Shown piece after piece: positions 596 to 41,180 of a stretch of DNA of 64,000 bases. A model generated the notes under the pieces. That model saw nothing but the letters and a program-made list of their open reading frames with translations, searched no databases and was not told the origin of the DNA. The stretch is taken from assembly GCA_039187815.1 (NCBI GenBank), contig JBCCZI010000003.1, positions 39,535-103,534 on the forward strand, read 5' to 3'. This DNA comes from Pseudomonadota bacterium (GTDB lineage Bacteria; Pseudomonadota; Alphaproteobacteria; Rhodobacterales; Rhodobacteraceae). The translations under genes and the position numbers were made by a program. How positions within the stretch are numbered: position 1 is the first letter of the stretch; every line of letters begins with the position of its first letter.

Positions 596-1363
596 ATGAC
601 CGACACTGCCGAGACTGACCGCCTTCGCGCGCGCTATCTCGACCTGATCGAGGACGTGATCATCAACCGAATCTACCGCGATCCGCCGCAGCAGACCAAG
701 CGGTGGAAGCGGCTGGTCTTCGGCGAGGAGCGTCGGGCGATCGGGCGCGATCTGCCCTCCCAAGCGCACTCGATGATTGGCCAGGCGCGGATGCGCAACC
801 TGAGGCATTGCCTGGAGACCGCTATTCGCACGGGCGTGCCAGGCGATTTCATCGAAACCGGCGTCTGGCGGGGCGGCGCGTGCATCTATGCCCGGGCGAT
901 CCTCGAGGCCTACGGCGCCAAGGAGCGCACCGTCTGGGTCGCCGATAGCTTTGCCGGCCTGCCCCCGCCCGATGCGGAAAAGTACCCGAGCGACAGTGGC
1001 GACAAGCATCACAAGAACGCGGCCCTTGCGATCTCGCGGGCCGATGTCGAGGCGCATTTCGAGCTCTACGGTCTGCTCGATGACCGCGTGCAGTTTCTCG
1101 AGGGGTGGTTCAAAGACACCCTGCCCACCGCGCCGATCGAGCAGCTCGCCGTCCTTCGCCTCGACGGCGACATGTACGAATCGACCATGGACGCCCTCAG
1201 GGCGCTCTATCAGAAGGTCAGCCCAGGCGGGTTCGTCATCGTTGATGATTTTGGTGCCGTGCCGGCCTGCGCACAGGCGGTGCGCGACTATCTCGGCAAA
1301 CGGGGCGAGGTGGTCGACTTCAGCGAGATCGACTGGACCGGCGTCTACTGGCGCAAGGTCTGA
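596..1363 (+). CDS. TylF/MycF/NovP-family SAM-dependent O-methyltransferase
   Basis: AHSMIG..RMRNL, GDFIETGVWRGG, VADSFAGLP, GWFKDTLP, LRLDGDMYEST, IVDDFG motifs; GAGAGGG RBS. Confidence 0.88.
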   Translation: MTDTAETDRLRARYLDLIEDVIINRIYRDPPQQTKRWKRLVFGEERRAIGRDLPSQAHSMIGQARMRNLRHCLETAIRTGVPGDFIETGVWRGGACIYARAILEAYGAKERTVWVADSFAGLPPPDAEKYPSDSGDKHHKNAALAISRADVEAHFELYGLLDDRVQFLEGWFKDTLPTAPIEQLAVLRLDGDMYESTMDALRALYQKVSPGGFVIVDDFGAVPACAQAVRDYLGKRGEVVDFSEIDWTGVYWRKV

Positions 1364-29617: not shown

Positions 29618-30031
29618 TCAGACCGGCTCCCGCTCGGCCAGGAAGCTGCGCAAATCGACCAGCCGTTTGCGCTCGAGCGAGACATAGACGAAGGCCATAT
29701 TGGTGCGCTCGGCGATCATCTCGCCGGGATAGGGCAGATAGCTGAGCTCACGCGAGCCGAAGGAGGGCGAGGCGCTGCCGACCTGCCAATCGCGGGTCAG
29801 CGTCACATCCACCAGCTTAAGCGACGGCCCGCCCGCCTCGTCCGCGATCTCGAGCGGCACGCCGGCGATGCGCAGATAGGCCGCCTTGTCGCGCGCCTCC
29901 TGAAACCCGTCGATAAACTGCGTCGCCAGCACCTGGAGATCGGCGGCCTGGTTCGCGGGCTCCATATGGCTGTGCAGATGGTCCGCCGCATGGTTGTGAT
30001 GGTGGTGATGGTGCGGATGATCATGGGGCAT
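29618..30031 (-). CDS. His-rich N-terminus hypothetical protein (candidate metal chaperone)
   Basis: MPHDHPHHHHHHNHAADHLHSH (12 His in 22 aa); last gene of the guanidine operon, overlapping the CMD gene. Confidence 0.75.
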   Translation of the reverse strand: MPHDHPHHHHHHNHAADHLHSHMEPANQAADLQVLATQFIDGFQEARDKAAYLRIAGVPLEIADEAGGPSLKLVDVTLTRDWQVGSASPSFGSRELSYLPYPGEMIAERTNMAFVYVSLERKRLVDLRSFLAEREPV

Positions 30032-30410
30032 CTTTGGCCTCCTGCTCCTCAAAGACCGCGAGGGCGGTGTTCAGCGCATTGATCGCGGACGGGAACCCGC
30101 CATAGAGCGCCATCTGCCAGATCACCTGGGCGATCTCGGTCTGGGTGAGGCCCGCCTTGAGCCCACCCTCGATGTTGACGCGCAGCTGCGGTGCGGTCTG
30201 CCCGCCCAGGGCCGTCAGCGCCGCGATCGTGGCGATGTAGCGGTCGCGGAGTGGCAGGCCCGGGCGGCTGTATTGCCGGCCATAGGCGAAATCGACCGCG
30301 CTCTCGGCCATGCCCGGCAACAGCGCGCCATAGCGGGCCTCGAGTGCGGCCTCCATCCCCGGATTGAGCTCGGCCACCAAAGCGCGGCCGCGGGCGAGGG
30401 TGTCTGTCAT
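30021..30410 (-). CDS. Carboxymuconolactone decarboxylase (CMD/AhpD-fold) family protein
   Basis: DFAYG..YSRPGL.LRDR...TIAAL.ALG...GL...EI...ALYGGFP. Confidence 0.82.
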   Translation of the reverse strand: MTDTLARGRALVAELNPGMEAALEARYGALLPGMAESAVDFAYGRQYSRPGLPLRDRYIATIAALTALGGQTAPQLRVNIEGGLKAGLTQTEIAQVIWQMALYGGFPSAINALNTALAVFEEQEAKDAP

Positions 30411-30415
30411 CGCGC

Positions 30416-31678
30416 TCAGCCCTTGTTCGACCAGCGATGGCCCTCGAACGCGCCGTGCGGGATGGTCACCGGCTTGTCGATCAGCGCCTTGTGCTTGCCG
30501 AGCGTGCCGGCCGAGACCATGGCGCCGAGCACATCGACGATCACCCGGGTCCCCATCAGCGCGGTGATGTCCGAGGTGTCATAGGGGGGCGAGACCTCGA
30601 CCAGTTCCATGCCGCAGATCCCTTGGGCTGCGACCTTGGAGGCGAGCGCCAACGCCTCGCGCGGCAGGAACCCACCCGGCTCGGGCCAGCCGGTGCCGGG
30701 CACAAAGCCGCAATCGATGCTGTCGATGTCGAAGGACATATAGACCATGTCGGCCCCGTCCCAGGCCATCTCGAGCGCCATCTCGGCGGTCTTGTCGATG
30801 CCCATCTTCTCCATATCGCCCATGGTGATGATGTTTGTGTTGCGCTCGCGGGCGACCTTCACCGCCTCACGCGGGACCTGCCAGCCGCCGATGCCCACCT
30901 GCACCAGGTTCTTGGCCGGTACGTTGGCCAGGTTGGTCGCGTGGAACCAGGGCGTGGTGTGCATGCGCTCGTCCAGGTCCTTTTCCTGGATATCCGCATG
31001 GCGGTCGAAATGCACGATGCCGATGGTCTTGGAGGTGCACTCGGCGATGCCGCGCACACAAGGAAACCCGATCGAGTGGTCGCCGCCGATCATGATGGGC
31101 AGCGAGCCCGAGGAGAAGACATGGCTGACCGCGCGCGAGATCTGGTCGAAGCTCTTCTCGAGATTGGCCGGGATGGTGAACACATCGCCCGCATCGCAGA
31201 GCGTCATCTGTTCGCGCAGATCGACCCCGATCTCGTAGTTATAGGGCGTGTAGAGAGCGGAGATCTTGCGCACCCCCTGGGGTCCAAAGCGCGTGCCCGG
31301 GCGATAGGTGGTGCCCCCGTCAAAGGGGATGCCGAGCACGGTGGCGTCATAGTGCCCGACCTCGGTGACGTCCTCGGTATAGGGCGCCTTGAGGAAGGTG
31401 TTGATGCCCGCGTAATGGGGCAGCTCGCCGCGCGCAAAGGTCGGGATCGACTTGTCCTCGATGCTGTCGGCGCCGGTCAGGCCCATGCGCAGCGCCCAGG
31501 CGCGCTCCTCGGCCCAGCGCCCCTCGGGGATCTCGGCCTCGGCGCGGGCTGCCTTCCAGCCCTGCAGTTTGGTGAGGTCCGGGTGGTGGGCGCGGGCCCG
31601 CTCGGGCCGGCCGAGTAGGGCCGAGAGATCGGCGCGCGGCGCGTGCCGGCGGGGGCAACGGGGGCGGGGATGGCTCAC
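30416..31678 (-). CDS. gdmH: Ureohydrolase, guanidine hydrolase (GdmH)-like
   Basis: SIPTFARGELPHYAGINTFLKAPY, TTYRPGTRFGP, GGDHSIGFP, HFDRHAD..EKDLDERMHT, SFDIDSID, GTGWPEPGG; downstream of a guanidine-I riboswitch. Confidence 0.82.
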   Translation of the reverse strand: MSHPRPRCPRRHAPRADLSALLGRPERARAHHPDLTKLQGWKAARAEAEIPEGRWAEERAWALRMGLTGADSIEDKSIPTFARGELPHYAGINTFLKAPYTEDVTEVGHYDATVLGIPFDGGTTYRPGTRFGPQGVRKISALYTPYNYEIGVDLREQMTLCDAGDVFTIPANLEKSFDQISRAVSHVFSSGSLPIMIGGDHSIGFPCVRGIAECTSKTIGIVHFDRHADIQEKDLDERMHTTPWFHATNLANVPAKNLVQVGIGGWQVPREAVKVARERNTNIITMGDMEKMGIDKTAEMALEMAWDGADMVYMSFDIDSIDCGFVPGTGWPEPGGFLPREALALASKVAAQGICGMELVEVSPPYDTSDITALMGTRVIVDVLGAMVSAGTLGKHKALIDKPVTIPHGAFEGHRWSNKG

Positions 31679-32457
31679 GGGGTCGGCTCCTCGGCTGGTT
31701 GAGAGATGGCGGGCTTTTGGATCAGGCCCTGGCCGGTCGGCAGGCTCAGAATCTCGAACCCGAGCTCCTCGGCCAACGCGTCGAAGGCCCGATGCTGCAC
31801 CGGATAGCCCTCATAATTGTAGTCATCGAGCACCACATAGCCGCCCGGGGTCATGCGCGGCCAGAAGTGGCGAAAGGCGGCAATCTCGGGCGCGGCGTTG
31901 TTCATGTCGATCGAGAGAAAGGCGACCGGGCCGGTCTCGACGCCCTCGAGGCTGGCGGGCACCGAGCCTTGGACGAAATGCACCCGCTCGAACTCGGCGA
32001 AATTGCGTTTGACCGCATCGATATTGGTGCTCTTGTAGAGGCCGAGGCGCCCGTCTTCGGCCTCTTCCGGCGTGACCAGCGCAGGATCGAGCCCCTCGAA
32101 GGTGTCGAACAGCCACGCCTCGCGGCCGAGCGCGTTCCAGCCGAGGCGCTGCATCACGGCGGCCATCAGGAACCCGGTGTTCACGCCGCACTCGACGAAA
32201 GTGCCGGGCAGGCGAGCGCATTGCTGCGCGGCCCACAGCACCACATGGAGGCGCCAGCGGATCTTGGGGTGGCCGGGGCTCGCCGCCTCGCCGCGCGCGA
32301 GTGCCGCCTGGAAGGCGGGGTCGTCGAGAAAGGCGGTCTGGTTCCAGGTGGCAAGCCGGTCCTCGTGGAAATAGCCCGGGCGGTACCAGTGCAGCACCAT
32401 GCCGAGCTTGCGCAGCAATCGTTTGGCCGGGCGCTTGATCGGTCGCAGATCCACCAT
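31675..32457 (-). CDS. TylF/MycF-family methyltransferase inside the guanidine operon
   Basis: WRLHVVLWAA, GTFVECGVNTG, LFDTFEG, VQGSVP, FLSIDMN, VVLDDY; GAGG RBS before ATG 32457; GTGA overlap with gdmH. Confidence 0.82.
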   Translation of the reverse strand: MVDLRPIKRPAKRLLRKLGMVLHWYRPGYFHEDRLATWNQTAFLDDPAFQAALARGEAASPGHPKIRWRLHVVLWAAQQCARLPGTFVECGVNTGFLMAAVMQRLGWNALGREAWLFDTFEGLDPALVTPEEAEDGRLGLYKSTNIDAVKRNFAEFERVHFVQGSVPASLEGVETGPVAFLSIDMNNAAPEIAAFRHFWPRMTPGGYVVLDDYNYEGYPVQHRAFDALAEELGFEILSLPTGQGLIQKPAISQPAEEPTP

Positions 32458-32470
32458 GGCGTGCCTCGCT

Positions 32471-33223
32471 CTATGATCCGGGCAGCCTCTGGAATGGGAT
32501 GCCTCCATCCCGAGCATCGATATCGTAAGTGATCGTTGCGCCATAGGCCTCTGGTGCATCGGGGTCCCAGCGCACCTTGTCAAAGACCAGAACGCGGTCG
32601 CCGAGCTTGAAGCCTTCGGAGAGGTCATGGGTCACCATAAAGACGGTCATGCCCGTCTCGGCGCGCAGCTCGAGCAAAAAGTCGTGCATGCGCAGCCGCG
32701 TGCCCGGGTCGAGCGCGCCGAAGGGCTCATCGAGCAGCATGACCTGGGGCCGGCCGGCCAGCGCCTGGGCAATGGCTAGGCGCTGCTGCTGGCCGCCTGA
32801 GAGCGCGGCGGGGTACTTCTCGGCCTCGGCGCCGAGGCCGATGCGCTCGAGCACCTCTTGGGCGCGGCCCGCCGCCGCCCGCCGGCGCCCGCCGAAAAAC
32901 CGGGCAAGCCATCCGCCCGCGCCCAGGTCCTCGGCCGCGATCAGATTGTCGCGCACGGTCATGTGGGGAAAGACCGAATAGCGTTGAAACACGACGCCCC
33001 GGTCGCGGCCAGGCTCGCGCGCCGGTGGCTGTCCGGCGATGCGGATCTCGCCCTGGCTCGGCGTCTCTTGGGCCAGCAGCAGGCGCAGGAAGGTGGATTT
33101 GCCGCAGCCCGAGGCGCCAACGATCGAGACGAAGGCGCCCTCCTCGACCTCGAGCGAGATGCCCTCCAGCACCGGGCGGAACCCATAACTGTGCACCAGG
33201 CCCTGGACCGAGACGAGGCTCAT
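32471..33223 (-). CDS. ABC transporter ATPase (NitT/TauT type; guanidine uptake)
   Basis: GASGCGKST, LSGGQQQRLAIA, LLDEPFGALDP. Confidence 0.9.
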   Translation of the reverse strand: MSLVSVQGLVHSYGFRPVLEGISLEVEEGAFVSIVGASGCGKSTFLRLLLAQETPSQGEIRIAGQPPAREPGRDRGVVFQRYSVFPHMTVRDNLIAAEDLGAGGWLARFFGGRRRAAAGRAQEVLERIGLGAEAEKYPAALSGGQQQRLAIAQALAGRPQVMLLDEPFGALDPGTRLRMHDFLLELRAETGMTVFMVTHDLSEGFKLGDRVLVFDKVRWDPDAPEAYGATITYDIDARDGGIPFQRLPGS

Positions 33224-34032
33224 CGCGTCTCACCCGCCCATGGATAGGCGCGCCGGGCATAGAGCCGCAGCCCTTGGTCGATCAGGAAGGCCAGCAGCGT
33301 GATCCAGACCACATAAGGCAGGATCACATCCATCGCCAAATAGCGCCGCACCAGGAAGATACGGTAGCCAAGGCCCTCGGTGGAGGCGATCGCCTCGGCC
33401 GCGATCAAGAACAGCCAGGCGGGGCCGAGCCCGAGCCGCACCGCCTGGACCAGCCGCGGCATCACCTGGGGCAGCACGACGCGCACCGCGATGGCCCAAC
33501 TCGAGGCGCCGAGCGTCTGGGCCTTGACCAGGATCTCTTGCGGGATCTCCGCCACCCGTTGCGCGATGTCGCGGATCATGATGGGCGCGATGCCGATGAC
33601 GATGAGCGCGACCTTCGAGACCTCCCCAAGCCCGAAGACGATGAAGAGGATCGGCAGGATCGCGAGCGGTGGGATCAGCGACAACGCGGCAAAGAAGGGC
33701 GACAGCCCGGCGCCCGCATAGGGCAAGAGCCCGCTGAGCACGCCAAAGACCAGAGCCGCCACCGTGGCGATGCCGACGCCGAGCGCCAGGCGCCAGAGGC
33801 TGGCGGCCGTGTCCTTCCACAGCAGGATGTCGCCCGAGCGGCGGTCGGGCTCGGAGGCCAAGCGCACCGCGGTCGTGCCGATCTGCTCGAGCGAGGGCAA
33901 GAGCTTGTCCGCCGGGTTGTCGGCCCGCCGGATGTCCGAGGCGACCGCATAGGCCAAGAGCAACAGCACGAAGGGCAGCAGGCTGAGCGCCAGCGCCCCC
34001 ACCCGGATGGGCTTTCGGTTGATCCACCGCAT
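33220..34032 (-). CDS. ABC transporter permease (NitT/TauT type; guanidine uptake)
   Basis: NPADKLLPS, IPPLAILPILFI, KAQTLGAS, IAAEAIAST.GLGYRIFLVRRY. Confidence 0.9.
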   Translation of the reverse strand: MRWINRKPIRVGALALSLLPFVLLLLAYAVASDIRRADNPADKLLPSLEQIGTTAVRLASEPDRRSGDILLWKDTAASLWRLALGVGIATVAALVFGVLSGLLPYAGAGLSPFFAALSLIPPLAILPILFIVFGLGEVSKVALIVIGIAPIMIRDIAQRVAEIPQEILVKAQTLGASSWAIAVRVVLPQVMPRLVQAVRLGLGPAWLFLIAAEAIASTEGLGYRIFLVRRYLAMDVILPYVVWITLLAFLIDQGLRLYARRAYPWAGETR

Positions 34033-34070: not shown

Positions 34071-35132
34071 TCAGAGCGCCCCGTCCGCAGCCATTTGCAT
34101 GTATTCGGTCGCGAAGCGGAACTTCACATTGTTCGCATCCCCCGTGGTCGAGCCATCGGGATAGGCGACGCCGACGAAATCCGCAGAGGGCGCGCCCTCG
34201 CCAAGGATCCCCTTGTCGAACAGGAACTCGGCGACGCTCACCATGGTCTTCGGCAGATCCGCGCCCTCGGTGAAAGCGACCGCATCGGCGGGAGCATAGA
34301 ACATCTCGGTCGAGGCGAGCTGCGCCTTGTATCCGGCGAGATCGGTGCCCGAGGCCTCGGCCATGGCGGTCAGAGCGGCCTCATCCCCCGCGGCCATCAG
34401 GGCCATGGTCTCGTACCAGGCGCCGACCATGGCTTTGCCAAAGGACGGGTTGGCCTCCAGCACCTCGGTGTTGACCACCATCAGATCGATGATCTCACCG
34501 GGGATGTCCGAGCTGTCGAAGACATTGGTGGCGTAGCCGCCCTCGAGAATCGTCGAGACCAGCGGGTTCCAGGTGACGACCGCGGCCACATCCGGCGTGG
34601 TGTAGGCCGCGACCATATCGGCGTCGGACGTGTTGATGACCGCCTCGAGATCGCGCTCGGACAGCCCAACGCTGTCAAGCCCGCGCGCCAGCAGATAGTG
34701 CGAAACCGACAGCTCCACGAGGTTCACTGGCTTGCCCTTGAGGTCGGCGAGCCCGCCCTCTTTGACCAGCACCGCGTCATTACCGTTCGAGAAGTCGCCA
34801 ACGATCAGCGCGGTGGTGTCGATGCCGCCACCCGAAGGGATCGAGAGGGTGTCCATATTGGTCGCCGAGACCCCGTCAAAGGCGCCGGCGGTGTATTGGT
34901 TGATGCTCTCGATGTAGTCGTTGATCTGCACGACCTCGATCGAGATGCCGTATTTGTCGGCCCATTTGTCGATGATGCCGCTGTCGGACATATAGCCCCA
35001 CGGCATCCAGCCCACATAGATCGACCAGGCGACGCGGAACTCGGTTTTCTCCTGGGCCAGCGCCGGGACGGCGGCGAAGGCCGCGGCGGCCACGGCAATG
35101 GCGGCGGTCAGGGATCGGAAGGATCTCGGCAT
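34071..35132 (-). CDS. ABC substrate-binding protein (family annotated as putative urea; likely guanidine)
   Basis: Signal peptide; AWSIYVGWMPW, NDYIESINQY, TNMDTL, DFSNGND, SVSHYLL, WNP, GEIIDL. Confidence 0.88.
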   Translation of the reverse strand: MPRSFRSLTAAIAVAAAAFAAVPALAQEKTEFRVAWSIYVGWMPWGYMSDSGIIDKWADKYGISIEVVQINDYIESINQYTAGAFDGVSATNMDTLSIPSGGGIDTTALIVGDFSNGNDAVLVKEGGLADLKGKPVNLVELSVSHYLLARGLDSVGLSERDLEAVINTSDADMVAAYTTPDVAAVVTWNPLVSTILEGGYATNVFDSSDIPGEIIDLMVVNTEVLEANPSFGKAMVGAWYETMALMAAGDEAALTAMAEASGTDLAGYKAQLASTEMFYAPADAVAFTEGADLPKTMVSVAEFLFDKGILGEGAPSADFVGVAYPDGSTTGDANNVKFRFATEYMQMAADGAL

Positions 35133-35215
35133 CAGGCACGCTCCCGCTCGTCTCGGCTGCGAAACGGGCCGACCGGCGGAGACGAGCCGGGCGCAGGTCG
35201 GTCCGGCGCAGTGCT

Positions 35216-35320
35216 CTCCCGGGCTTTTCCCCCGCCGTGTGCCCGACGCGAATTTGCGCAACCGGGTGTCGCCTCTCGGACCAGACGCTGCCGCGCAGCC
35301 GGAACCCTAGACGACCTGCG
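35216..35320 (-). ncRNA. Guanidine-I (ykkC-yxkD) riboswitch
   Basis: Minus strand CTAGGGTTCCGG...CTGGTCCGAGAG...ACACGGCGGGGGAAAAGCCCGGGAG, upstream of the SBP gene. Confidence 0.93.
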
Positions 35321-35330
35321 ATGAGGGCGA

Positions 35331-38726: not shown

Positions 38727-41180
38727 ATGGCATCGGACGTGATCAGCATTGGCATCGAGGGCATGCATTGCGCCGCCTGCTCTGGGCGGGCCGAGCGCGC
38801 GCTGGCCGATGTGCCAGGCGTTGCCCGCGCCTCGGTGAACTTGCTGACCCACCGGGCCGAGATCGAGTTGGCGGGCGCCACGGCGGATGCGGTGATCCAT
38901 GCGGTCGAGGCGGCGGGCTTCCAGGTGCCGACCGCCGAGGCGCAGATCGCCCTCACCGGACTGCAGTGTGCCGCGTGTGTCGCGCGGGTCGAGGCGCGGC
39001 TGCGGCGCATCCCAGGCATCGTCTCGGCCGAGGTCAATCTGGCCACGGAGCGGGCCCGGATCCAATGGACCGGTGCGCGACCCACGCGGTCGATCCTCGA
39101 GATGGCTCTGGGCGAAATCGGCTTTGGCCTCGGCGCCGATGTGGGCGAGGATCGGACACCAGCGACCGCTGAGCCGGACTGGCTCGGCCGCGATGTGTTA
39201 TTGGCCGCGGGGCTCAGCCTGCCCGTCGTGGCGCTCGAGATGGGTGGCCATCTGATCCCGGGCCTCGCGCTCTGGGTCGAGCAGAGCCTCGGGCAAACCA
39301 CCAACTGGCTGGTGCAAGGGGTGCTGACGAGCCTGGTCCTGCTCGGCCCGGGACGGCGGTTCTTCACGACCGGCGTGCCGGCGCTCTGGCGCGGGGCGCC
39401 GGACATGAACGCTCTGGTCGCGCTCGGCACGCTGGCCGCCTGGGGGTTCTCGACGGTGGTCCTGCTCACACCAGGGCTCCTGCCAGCCGCGGCCCGCGCG
39501 GTCTATTTCGAAGCGGCGGCGGTGATCGTGACGCTGATCCTGCTCGGGCGGTGGCTCGAGGCCCGCGCCCGCGCCCGAACAGGCGAGGCGGTGCGGCGCC
39601 TGATCGGCCTCGCGCCCAGCACCGCACGGGTGCTGCGCGGCGGCGCCGAGATCGAGACCCCGGTCAGCGCCCTGATCCCGGGCGACCAGGTCCGCGTGCG
39701 CCCGGGTGAACGCCTGCCCGTCGACGGCGTGCTGCTCGAGGGCCGCTCCTTCATCGACCAATCCATGCTCACCGGCGAGCCGCTGCCGCTGGAGGCTGCT
39801 CCGGGCCAGAGGCTGGTCGGCGGAACGGTGAACGGGGCGGGCGCGCTGACGCTGCGGGCGACCCGGGTGGGCGCAGACACCGTGCTCGCCCAGATCGTGC
39901 GGATGGTCGAGGCCGCCCAGGCCACCAAGCTGCCGATCCAGGCCGTCGTCGACCGGGTCACCGCCTGGTTCGTGCCCGCCGTGCTGGCCGTGGCCATGCT
40001 GACGGTGCTGACCTGGCTGGCGCTGGGACCGGCGCCGGCCGTGCCCGCCGCCCTGACCGCCGGTGTGGCGGTACTGATCATCGCCTGCCCCTGCGCCATG
40101 GGGCTGGCGACACCGACTTCGATCCTGGTCGGGACGGGGCGCGGGGCCGAGCTCGGCGTGCTGTTCCGCGGCGGCGATGCGCTGCAGGCGCTCGGCCAGG
40201 TCGACGTGGTGGCCTTTGACAAGACCGGCACGTTGACCGAGGGACGCCCGGTGCTCACCGATCTCGTGACGCTGGACGGCGTTGCGGAGAACGCCCTGCT
40301 GACCGCCATCGCCGCGGTCGAGGCCCGCTCGGAGCATCCGATCGCCCGCGCTGTGGTGGCCGAGGCCGTGCGGCGCGGCCTGGAGTGGCCTGAGGCGGAG
40401 GCGGTCGAGAGCCTGCCCGGCATCGGGGTTCGCGGTCGGGCCGCGGGGCGCCGGGTTCTGGTCGGATCGGCGCGGCTGCTCGAGCGTGAGGGGCTCACGG
40501 TCGATCCGGCCTTGGCCGCGCGCTTTGGAGCCGCCGGCAAGACCCCGCTCTTTGCGGCCATCGACGGGACGGCGGTGGGTGCCATTGCGGTCGCCGATCC
40601 AGTCCGGCCCGAAACCGCCACCGCCCTCGCCGAACTCCGCGCTCTTGGGGTCGAAATCGCCATGATCTCGGGCGACACCCAGGCGACAGCCGCTGCGATC
40701 GGCGCCGAGCTCGGCATCGACCGGGTGGTCGCCGAGGTGCTCCCCGCCGGCAAGGTGGCCGCGCTCGCATCGTTGCGCGAGGGCGGCCGGCGCGTGGCTT
40801 TTGTCGGCGACGGCATCAACGACGCCCCAGCCCTGGCAGCGGCGGATGTGGGCATCGCCGTTGGCACGGGCACCGACATCGCCATCGACAGTGCCGATGT
40901 GGTGCTGATGTCCGGCGCACCCACAGGGGTTGCGCGCGCCATCGCCCTCAGCCGCGCCACCATGGGCAACATCCGGCAGAACCTGGCCTGGGCCTTTGGC
41001 TACAACACCGCTCTGATCCCGGTGGCCGCCGGAGCGCTAGCGCCCTTTGGCGGGCCGATGCTCTCGCCGATGCTGGCGGCGGCGGCCATGGCGCTCTCGA
41101 GCGTCTTTGTGGTCGGCAACGCGCTCCGGCTGCGCCGTTTCGCACCAGCGCCGCGGCGCGTGGCAGGGAGGCAGCCATGA
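38727..41180 (+). CDS. copA: Cu(I)-translocating P1B-type ATPase
   Basis: Two HMA domains (GMHCAAC, GLQCAAC), TGEP, CPC, DKTGT, SEHP, GDGIND, YN, MALSS. Confidence 0.95.

Follow-up and report, generated by a model that had tools for sequence, protein, structure and literature searches.

Probable capture of a glycan O-methyltransferase gene by a guanidine-riboswitch operon in the Rhodobacteraceae

Why should an operon for the uptake and hydrolysis of guanidine contain a gene from a family of sugar O-methyltransferases? The question is raised by a stretch of 64,000 nt (the window; positions 39,535 to 103,534 of the forward strand of contig JBCCZI010000003.1, assembly GCA_039187815.1) from a member of the Rhodobacteraceae, in which a gene of the TylF/MycF/NovP family lies between the gene for an ABC transporter ATPase and gdmH, encoding a guanidine hydrolase. 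A sequence-only reading of this DNA had proposed either a new guanidine-inducible methylation, for instance of a guanidino compound, or a recent insertion captured by the operon. The analysis presented here points, as the probable explanation, to a glycan O-methyltransferase that was captured long ago in a single lineage and has come under guanidine control through its position, the gene being a passenger and not a new step of guanidine metabolism.

When one genome per species was scanned, at least 584 relatives of GdmH were found, and the best 80 loci (79-93 % identical), mostly from Rhodobacterales with some Kordiimonadales and Rhodospirillales-like metagenome-assembled genomes (MAGs), were analysed. 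All 80 of these loci of other species demonstrated the core order of genes for a substrate-binding protein (SBP), permease, ATPase, GdmH and a His-rich protein. A homolog of the methyltransferase was found in none of them, neither at the ATPase-gdmH junction nor within 8 kb on either side. Among 30 other species of the genus to which the window belongs, gdmH was present in 15, and the ATPase-gdmH junction could be read in 11 loci, none of which carried the methyltransferase gene. Of the 9 related operons tested, 8 had the guanidine-I riboswitch ahead of the SBP gene. The methyltransferase gene, absent from most operons, is not a core component of the guanidine-riboswitch gdmH operons.

The methyltransferase gene was present at the ATPase-gdmH junction in two genomes only, the window genome (G000) and the MAG GCA_038520205.1 (locus L013), so that its confinement to a single strain, considered in the sequence-only reading, did not hold. 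The two proteins are 83 % identical and the gene order in L013, permease-ATPase-methyltransferase-gdmH-CMD (carboxymuconolactone decarboxylase-like)-His-rich, matches that of the window. Among 5.8 billion protein clusters only two were more than 56 % identical to the methyltransferase, one from the window's own species and the other being that of L013.

In the window the riboswitch leads seven close-packed genes and all features of the operon lie on the minus strand. They are listed below; the coordinates of the SBP gene are approximate, its start being taken as the ATG before the signal peptide, and the spacer, the Shine-Dalgarno motif and the overlap were read directly from the sequence.

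35214..35321, minus strand: guanidine-I riboswitch aptamer, leader of the operon (Rfam RF00442, 79.1 bits against a gathering score of 63, E 2e-12)
34071..35132, minus strand: ABC substrate-binding protein, TIGR03427 family (521.9 bits against a cut-off of 333.9)
33220..34032, minus strand: ABC permease (PF00528, E 7.8e-17)
32471..33223, minus strand: ABC ATPase (PF00005, E 3.6e-34)
32458..32470, minus strand: spacer of 13 nt that separates the ATPase stop from the methyltransferase ATG, with GAGG at 32467-32464
31675..32457, minus strand: inserted gene, TylF/MycF/NovP-family S-adenosylmethionine (SAM)-dependent O-methyltransferase of 260 aa (PF05711, 63.4 bits)
31687..31692, minus strand: GAGGAG, Shine-Dalgarno motif for gdmH, within codons of the methyltransferase C-terminal tail
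31675..31678, minus strand: GTGA overlap of the gdmH GTG and the methyltransferase TGA, conserved in L013 at 2221-2224
30416..31678, minus strand: GdmH-type guanidine hydrolase, arginase family, 420 aa (matches PDB 7ESR/7OI1 and 9FEK)
30021..30410, minus strand: CMD-family protein (PF02627, E 1.6e-13)
29618..30031, minus strand: His-rich protein MPHDHPHHHHHHNH..., last gene of the operon (no Pfam or NCBIfam match)

Sll1077 of Synechocystis was reportedly identified by Funck and co-workers in 2022 as GdmH, a Ni-dependent guanidine hydrolase. The arginase-family protein of the window matched the structures of this Synechocystis enzyme (PDB 7ESR/7OI1) over residues 43-395 with E 1.5e-164, and the Nitrospira inopinata guanidinase (9FEK; PMC11410670) with E 1.8e-159. 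Judging by these close characterised guanidinases and by the guanidine riboswitch, the gene is that of a GdmH-type guanidine hydrolase.

The operons that lack the methyltransferase gene show how the junction is otherwise built. In these the tail of the ATPase gene runs about 17 nt into gdmH, which starts with ATG behind GGAGGA, and the N-terminus of GdmH follows the pattern M....R(S/T)RSHHP....RRxHHPDL. In both the window and L013 the ATPase has a truncated tail, FQR(L/V)P... (FQRLPGS* in the window, shorter than in the methyltransferase-free operons), gdmH starts with GTG, the RSRSHHP motif is gone and the two GdmH N-termini have in common a different segment, DL(S/T)ALLGRP(E/D)R. The N-terminal 25-30 residues or so of the window GdmH could not be aligned with those of most relatives. 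Since the first ~25 residues of GdmH vary generally, the protein of locus L106 also being without the RSRSHHP motif, replacement of this segment is indistinguishable from its divergence. Comparison of the junctions shows the ~17-nt ATPase-gdmH overlap to be, in all likelihood, the ancestral state, and a single insertion in the common ancestor of the window and L013 to have broken it and replaced the ATPase tail. No footprint of a mobile element is left at the insertion in the window.

The junction accommodates other genes elsewhere. CutA1 is encoded there on the same strand in L018 (7697-8032) and L066 (7648-7962), and a Pfam-confirmed PPK2 in L059 (3617-4600). PPK2 homologs, recognised by sequence likeness only, occur together with an open reading frame (ORF) of 269 aa on the opposite strand in L047 (5936-7801) and L090 (5993-7858), and the same 269-aa ORF, again by likeness, is present at the junction in L105. 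Finally, an RNA ligase and an HD/AAA kinase are encoded at this position in L034 (5853-7972). The ATPase-gdmH junction therefore looks like a permissive place, probably a recurrent landing site for unrelated accessory genes across lineages.

Both junctions of the inserted gene are tight. The ATPase stop TAG occupies 32473-32471 and the methyltransferase ATG 32457-32455, 13 nt beyond it, with GAGG 6 nt ahead of the ATG. The ribosome-binding site that the sequence-only reading placed 13 nt after the ATPase stop does exist within the spacer, the position given being that of the start codon and not of the ribosome-binding site. The coordinates of the gene given in that reading stood, the homologs beginning at ATG 32457. 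A longer ORF of 317 aa from ATG 32628 was rejected, as the N-termini of 62 homologs align with ATG 32457. At the other end the TGA (31677-31675) overlaps GTG (31678-31676) to form GTGA, 8 nt downstream of GAGGAG. This GTG is the sole ATG, GTG or TTG codon ahead of the GdmH segment HHPDLTKLQGW (residues 31-41), which is conserved in every relative, so the GTGA overlap, also noticed in the sequence-only reading, can be taken as real. The ATG at codon 65 of gdmH, a downstream start that would abolish the coupling, was rejected, since residues 31-64 are conserved throughout the relatives and also in Sll1077.

In L013 the gdmH GTG has GGAGG 10 nt upstream, and the ATPase and methyltransferase genes meet in an ATGA overlap instead of the 13-nt spacer of the window. 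The public annotation of GCA_038520205.1 starts gdmH at CTG (2251), 30 nt past the in-frame GTG at 2221; judging by the window-like architecture and the GGAGG upstream, the latter is the better start. The methyltransferase has a C-terminal tail of about 10 residues past the family end PTGQGLxxKP, and this tail encodes the gdmH Shine-Dalgarno motif. The junctions as read show tight coupling on both sides of the methyltransferase gene, predicted from the 13-nt spacer or ATGA upstream and from the GTGA with its internal Shine-Dalgarno motif downstream. A stop-start overlap with an upstream Shine-Dalgarno motif, kept in the orthologous locus, is what coupling by reinitiation would be expected to look like. 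A scan for transcription signals was uninformative: no sigma-70-like sites were found around the methyltransferase gene, and the terminator-like matches were weak and all within coding sequence.

The assignment of the protein to the TylF/MycF family in the sequence-only reading was confirmed. It matched PF05711 with 63.4 bits against a cut-off of 23 and PF13578 with 43 bits against 26.3. The AlphaFold model (pLDDT 93, pTM 0.88) gave SpnH (4CE0, E 1e-11), NovP (2WK1) and MycF (4X7U) as the best Foldseek matches, each with probability 1.00, and MeT1 and CalS11 were also among the best folds; all top structural matches are sugar O-methyltransferases. We take SpnH to be a rhamnosyl 4'-O-methyltransferase and CalS11 a TDP-rhamnose 3'-O-methyltransferase. 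All 28 invariant columns of an alignment of 63 subfamily sequences are kept by the window protein, including the motifs E89-C-G-V-x-x-G95, DTF (D118), D184-M-N186, D211-D212-Y and PTGQG, and D184 and DDY correspond in the alignment to the D...DDY of SpnH. The roles of ECGV-G in SAM binding and of D184 and D211-D212 in metal binding are presumably those established for MycF and NovP. The second Asp of the classical D-G-D is replaced by Asn (D-M-N) throughout the subfamily and not in the window alone. The gene most likely encodes an intact metal- and SAM-dependent sugar O-methyltransferase of the ~250-aa TylF/MycF/NovP subfamily.

The ratio of nonsynonymous to synonymous substitutions (dN/dS) between the window and L013 was 0.08 for the methyltransferase, in comparison to 0.04 for gdmH, 0.06 for the CMD gene, 0.21 for the ATPase and 0.19 for the His-rich protein. 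The methyltransferase protein is maintained by purifying selection.

The relatives of the enzyme point to its source. The nearest homologs beyond the two operons are 50-56 % identical, and surface-polysaccharide loci constituted five of the seven homolog contexts inspected, their subfamily members being 44-56 % identical to the window protein. The first of these loci encodes RmlA/D-type proteins, PMT_2 glycosyltransferases and Wzy, the second ManC and the exosortase EpsH, the third GT2 and hexapeptide transferases, the fourth GT1, EpsH and a sulfotransferase, and the fifth GT1, GT2 and UDP-glucose dehydrogenase. One close homolog lies in a prophage, beside a gene for a 1099-aa protein. Most members of the subfamily are encoded in exopolysaccharide or O-antigen loci, and a mycobacterial protein that its source calls MtfD belongs to the subfamily too. 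The clade is sporadic, a homolog with E<=1e-50 being present in 1 of 400 genomes of the same class. In the JGI metagenomes no closer relative was found, the best match being 49 % identical besides an 80-residue fragment at 53 %. O-methylation of a sugar hydroxyl is what homology and the polysaccharide contexts of the nearest relatives would predict for this enzyme.

The GC content of third codon positions (GC3) of the L013 methyltransferase gene is 0.63, as opposed to 0.74-0.79 for the ATPase, gdmH and CMD genes, which gives it a foreign look; the gene in the window, with GC3 of 0.86, is fully ameliorated. The flanking genes of the window and L013 differ by a synonymous divergence (dS) of ~0.7-1.0. 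Since the insertion is common to two genomes so far apart, its junctions are streamlined and the protein is under purifying selection, it is not recent. Of the sequence-only proposal of a recent insertion captured by the operon, the capture is upheld by the absence of the gene from other gdmH operons and by the relatives in polysaccharide loci, whereas the recent date is not.

The course of events that we consider probable is as follows. A copy from a polysaccharide-type source would have landed between the ABC ATPase gene and gdmH in the ancestor of the window and GCA_038520205.1, breaking the coupled junction, and the coupling would then have been rebuilt on both sides. Since there is no room for a promoter or terminator of its own, the methyltransferase gene would be part of the operon transcript and induced by guanidine. 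Ribosomes that reach the end of the methyltransferase may restart on gdmH, so that gdmH translation would now be physically tied to the newcomer and, by position, the enzyme made when guanidine opens the riboswitch. The substrate would still be a 6-deoxyhexose or hexose hydroxyl, carried by a sugar nucleotide or a glycan of the cell surface, rather than a guanidino compound, and the guanidine control would be a by-product of the landing place. The window genome encodes RmlC (217.7 bits), which makes a rhamnose pathway, and hence rhamnose-containing glycan substrates, plausible. An arginase-family and GS-like gene pair of the same genome lies ~10 kb from the RmlC gene (G000 contig C54: 2443-4637 and 14537-15049).

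Several observations weigh against so passive a role. The gene is not decaying, and the strong purifying selection together with the tight coupling in both genomes suggests that the methyltransferase does something useful here. The clade of the window and L013 sits on a long stem branch of 0.62 substitutions per site, and the two proteins share 13 derived residues at alignment positions that 75 % or more of the relatives keep unchanged, among them HNH to NQT at 39-41, C187N beside DMN and A214N beside DDY, which would fit a shift of substrate. With a 14th, C80, that is not found in L013, the window protein departs from the consensus at 14 positions, in a family with a median of 8 and a maximum of 19.

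The sole other close homolog in the genus (56 % identity), that of genome G024 (locus L014, 5548-8741), is a lineage-specific single-gene insert too. It is placed between a GS-like gene, itself overlapping a gene for a 331-aa arginase-family protein, and a convergent PfkB gene. The arginase-family, GS-like and PfkB genes without the insert occur in nine further species of the genus; one of these is the sister species G012, whose GS-like protein is 93 % identical. Given 7-8 arginase-family genes per genome and seven contexts inspected, such an adjacency has a post hoc chance of coincidence of ~5 % (1 in 20), and it may be coincidental. Of a further 31 homolog loci, drawn from genomes and metagenomes, not one had an arginase-family neighbour, a weak test with many of the loci short.

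These points could also be read as signs that the guanidine or nitrogen control is itself what was selected, the enzyme still acting on a surface glycan and remodelling the envelope, for example by masking rhamnose hydroxyls, in guanidine-rich niches. Purifying selection and conserved coupling in two species, the second case within the genus (in G024 the homolog lies downstream of a different nitrogen-catabolic ureohydrolase operon) and the RmlC of the window genome are in line with it. We nevertheless regard it as unlikely, given that the arrangement occurs in two genomes only, that no other gdmH operon examined contains a glycan gene and that a literature search gave no physiological link between guanidine and envelope methylation.

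Recruitment of the enzyme to guanidine-related chemistry would be a more radical change. It would then O-methylate N-hydroxyguanidine, hydroxyurea, hydroxylamine-type side products or another compound imported by the transporter. To our knowledge no TylF-family member acts on non-sugar N-hydroxy compounds. This explanation could accommodate the length of the stem branch, the derived residues common to the window and L013 around the motifs and in the N-terminal segment, and the two independent arginase-family adjacencies within one genus; bacteria are also known to form hydroxyguanidine when they break down canavanine (PMC12623156). Against this, the catalytic and SAM motifs are all as in the relatives from glycan loci, the 14 departures from the consensus stay within the family range, the gene is present in none of more than 90 other gdmH operons, and the other homolog loci, many of them short, lack arginase-family neighbours. 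If it were true, a SAM-dependent detoxification or tailoring step would be added to guanidine assimilation, the TylF family would extend beyond sugars and the G024 placement beside an arginase-family operon would be no coincidence. A reaction on a guanidine-related molecule would be new to the young field of guanidine metabolism; the present evidence does not favour it. With neither a recurrent association nor an altered catalytic motif, the methylation of a guanidino compound proposed in the sequence-only reading found no support, and a direct role in guanidine chemistry seems distinctly unlikely.

That the protein is functionless, its ORF being kept only because the ribosome-binding site and start of gdmH lie in its 3' end and its translation is needed for GdmH, would agree with the Shine-Dalgarno motif and GTG overlap inside the ORF and with GTG as a weak start that could depend on reinitiation, but is very improbable, as a dN/dS of 0.08 over the whole protein and the retention of every invariant catalytic and SAM residue speak for selection on the amino-acid sequence and not on a mere open frame.

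The captured-methyltransferase interpretation can be set against three known kinds of system. With the TylF, MycF, NovP and SpnH sugar O-methyltransferases the window protein shares the Pfam match, the fold, the ECGV-G SAM motif and the acidic D184/D211-D212, and it differs from them in its gene being placed in a guanidine-riboswitch uptake and hydrolysis operon instead of a glycan or antibiotic cluster, in the C-terminal tail carrying the Shine-Dalgarno motif of the next gene and in the 13 lineage-specific substitutions at otherwise conserved columns. The operon agrees with the guanidine-I riboswitch gdmH operons of Synechocystis and N. inopinata in the upstream RF00442 and the GdmH ortholog, and its core order is that of the 80 alphaproteobacterial loci. 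It departs from these operons by the addition of a methyltransferase gene between ATPase and gdmH and of a CMD gene, by a GTG-started gdmH with a different N-terminus, and by two new junctions in place of the direct overlap. The third comparison is with the single-gene glycan-modification 'morons' of phages and islands, such as serotype-converting O-antigen modifiers. Like them, the methyltransferase gene is a sporadic single-gene unit, with one close homolog in a prophage, and it settles in host transcription units to which it is unrelated and whose promoters it would use; unlike them, it has no mobile-element footprint and has been streamlined into the operon with overlapping codons.

The literature search, covering methyltransferases in guanidine/ykkC operons, TylF proteins in rhamnose methylation of lipopolysaccharide and a link between TylF and the guanidine riboswitch, returned nothing relevant. 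The one loose parallel is a putative fatty-acid methyltransferase up-regulated on guanidine in N. inopinata (PMC11410670).

If the capture took place as proposed, the locus provides a clean natural example of a foreign single gene absorbed into a tightly overlapping riboswitch-controlled operon, in which selection would have moved the ribosome-binding site and start codon of gdmH into the 3' end of the newcomer. It would also draw attention to the ATPase-gdmH junction as a recurrent landing site for accessory genes, including those for CutA1, PPK2 and RNA repair.

Close to its start the window contains a second TylF/Methyltransf_24-like ORF (830-1255, plus strand), distant at 27 % identity over residues 81-214 and unrelated to the operon. 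Within the operon, the CMD gene between gdmH and the His-rich gene is an accessory, present in 4 of 82 operons (the window, L013, L037 and L067). The His-rich protein, in spite of its lack of Pfam or NCBIfam matches, has a homolog encoded after gdmH in each of the 80 related loci. It is a GdmH partner conserved in Alphaproteobacteria and a candidate Ni-delivery factor replacing the HypA/HypB-like GhaA/GhaB.

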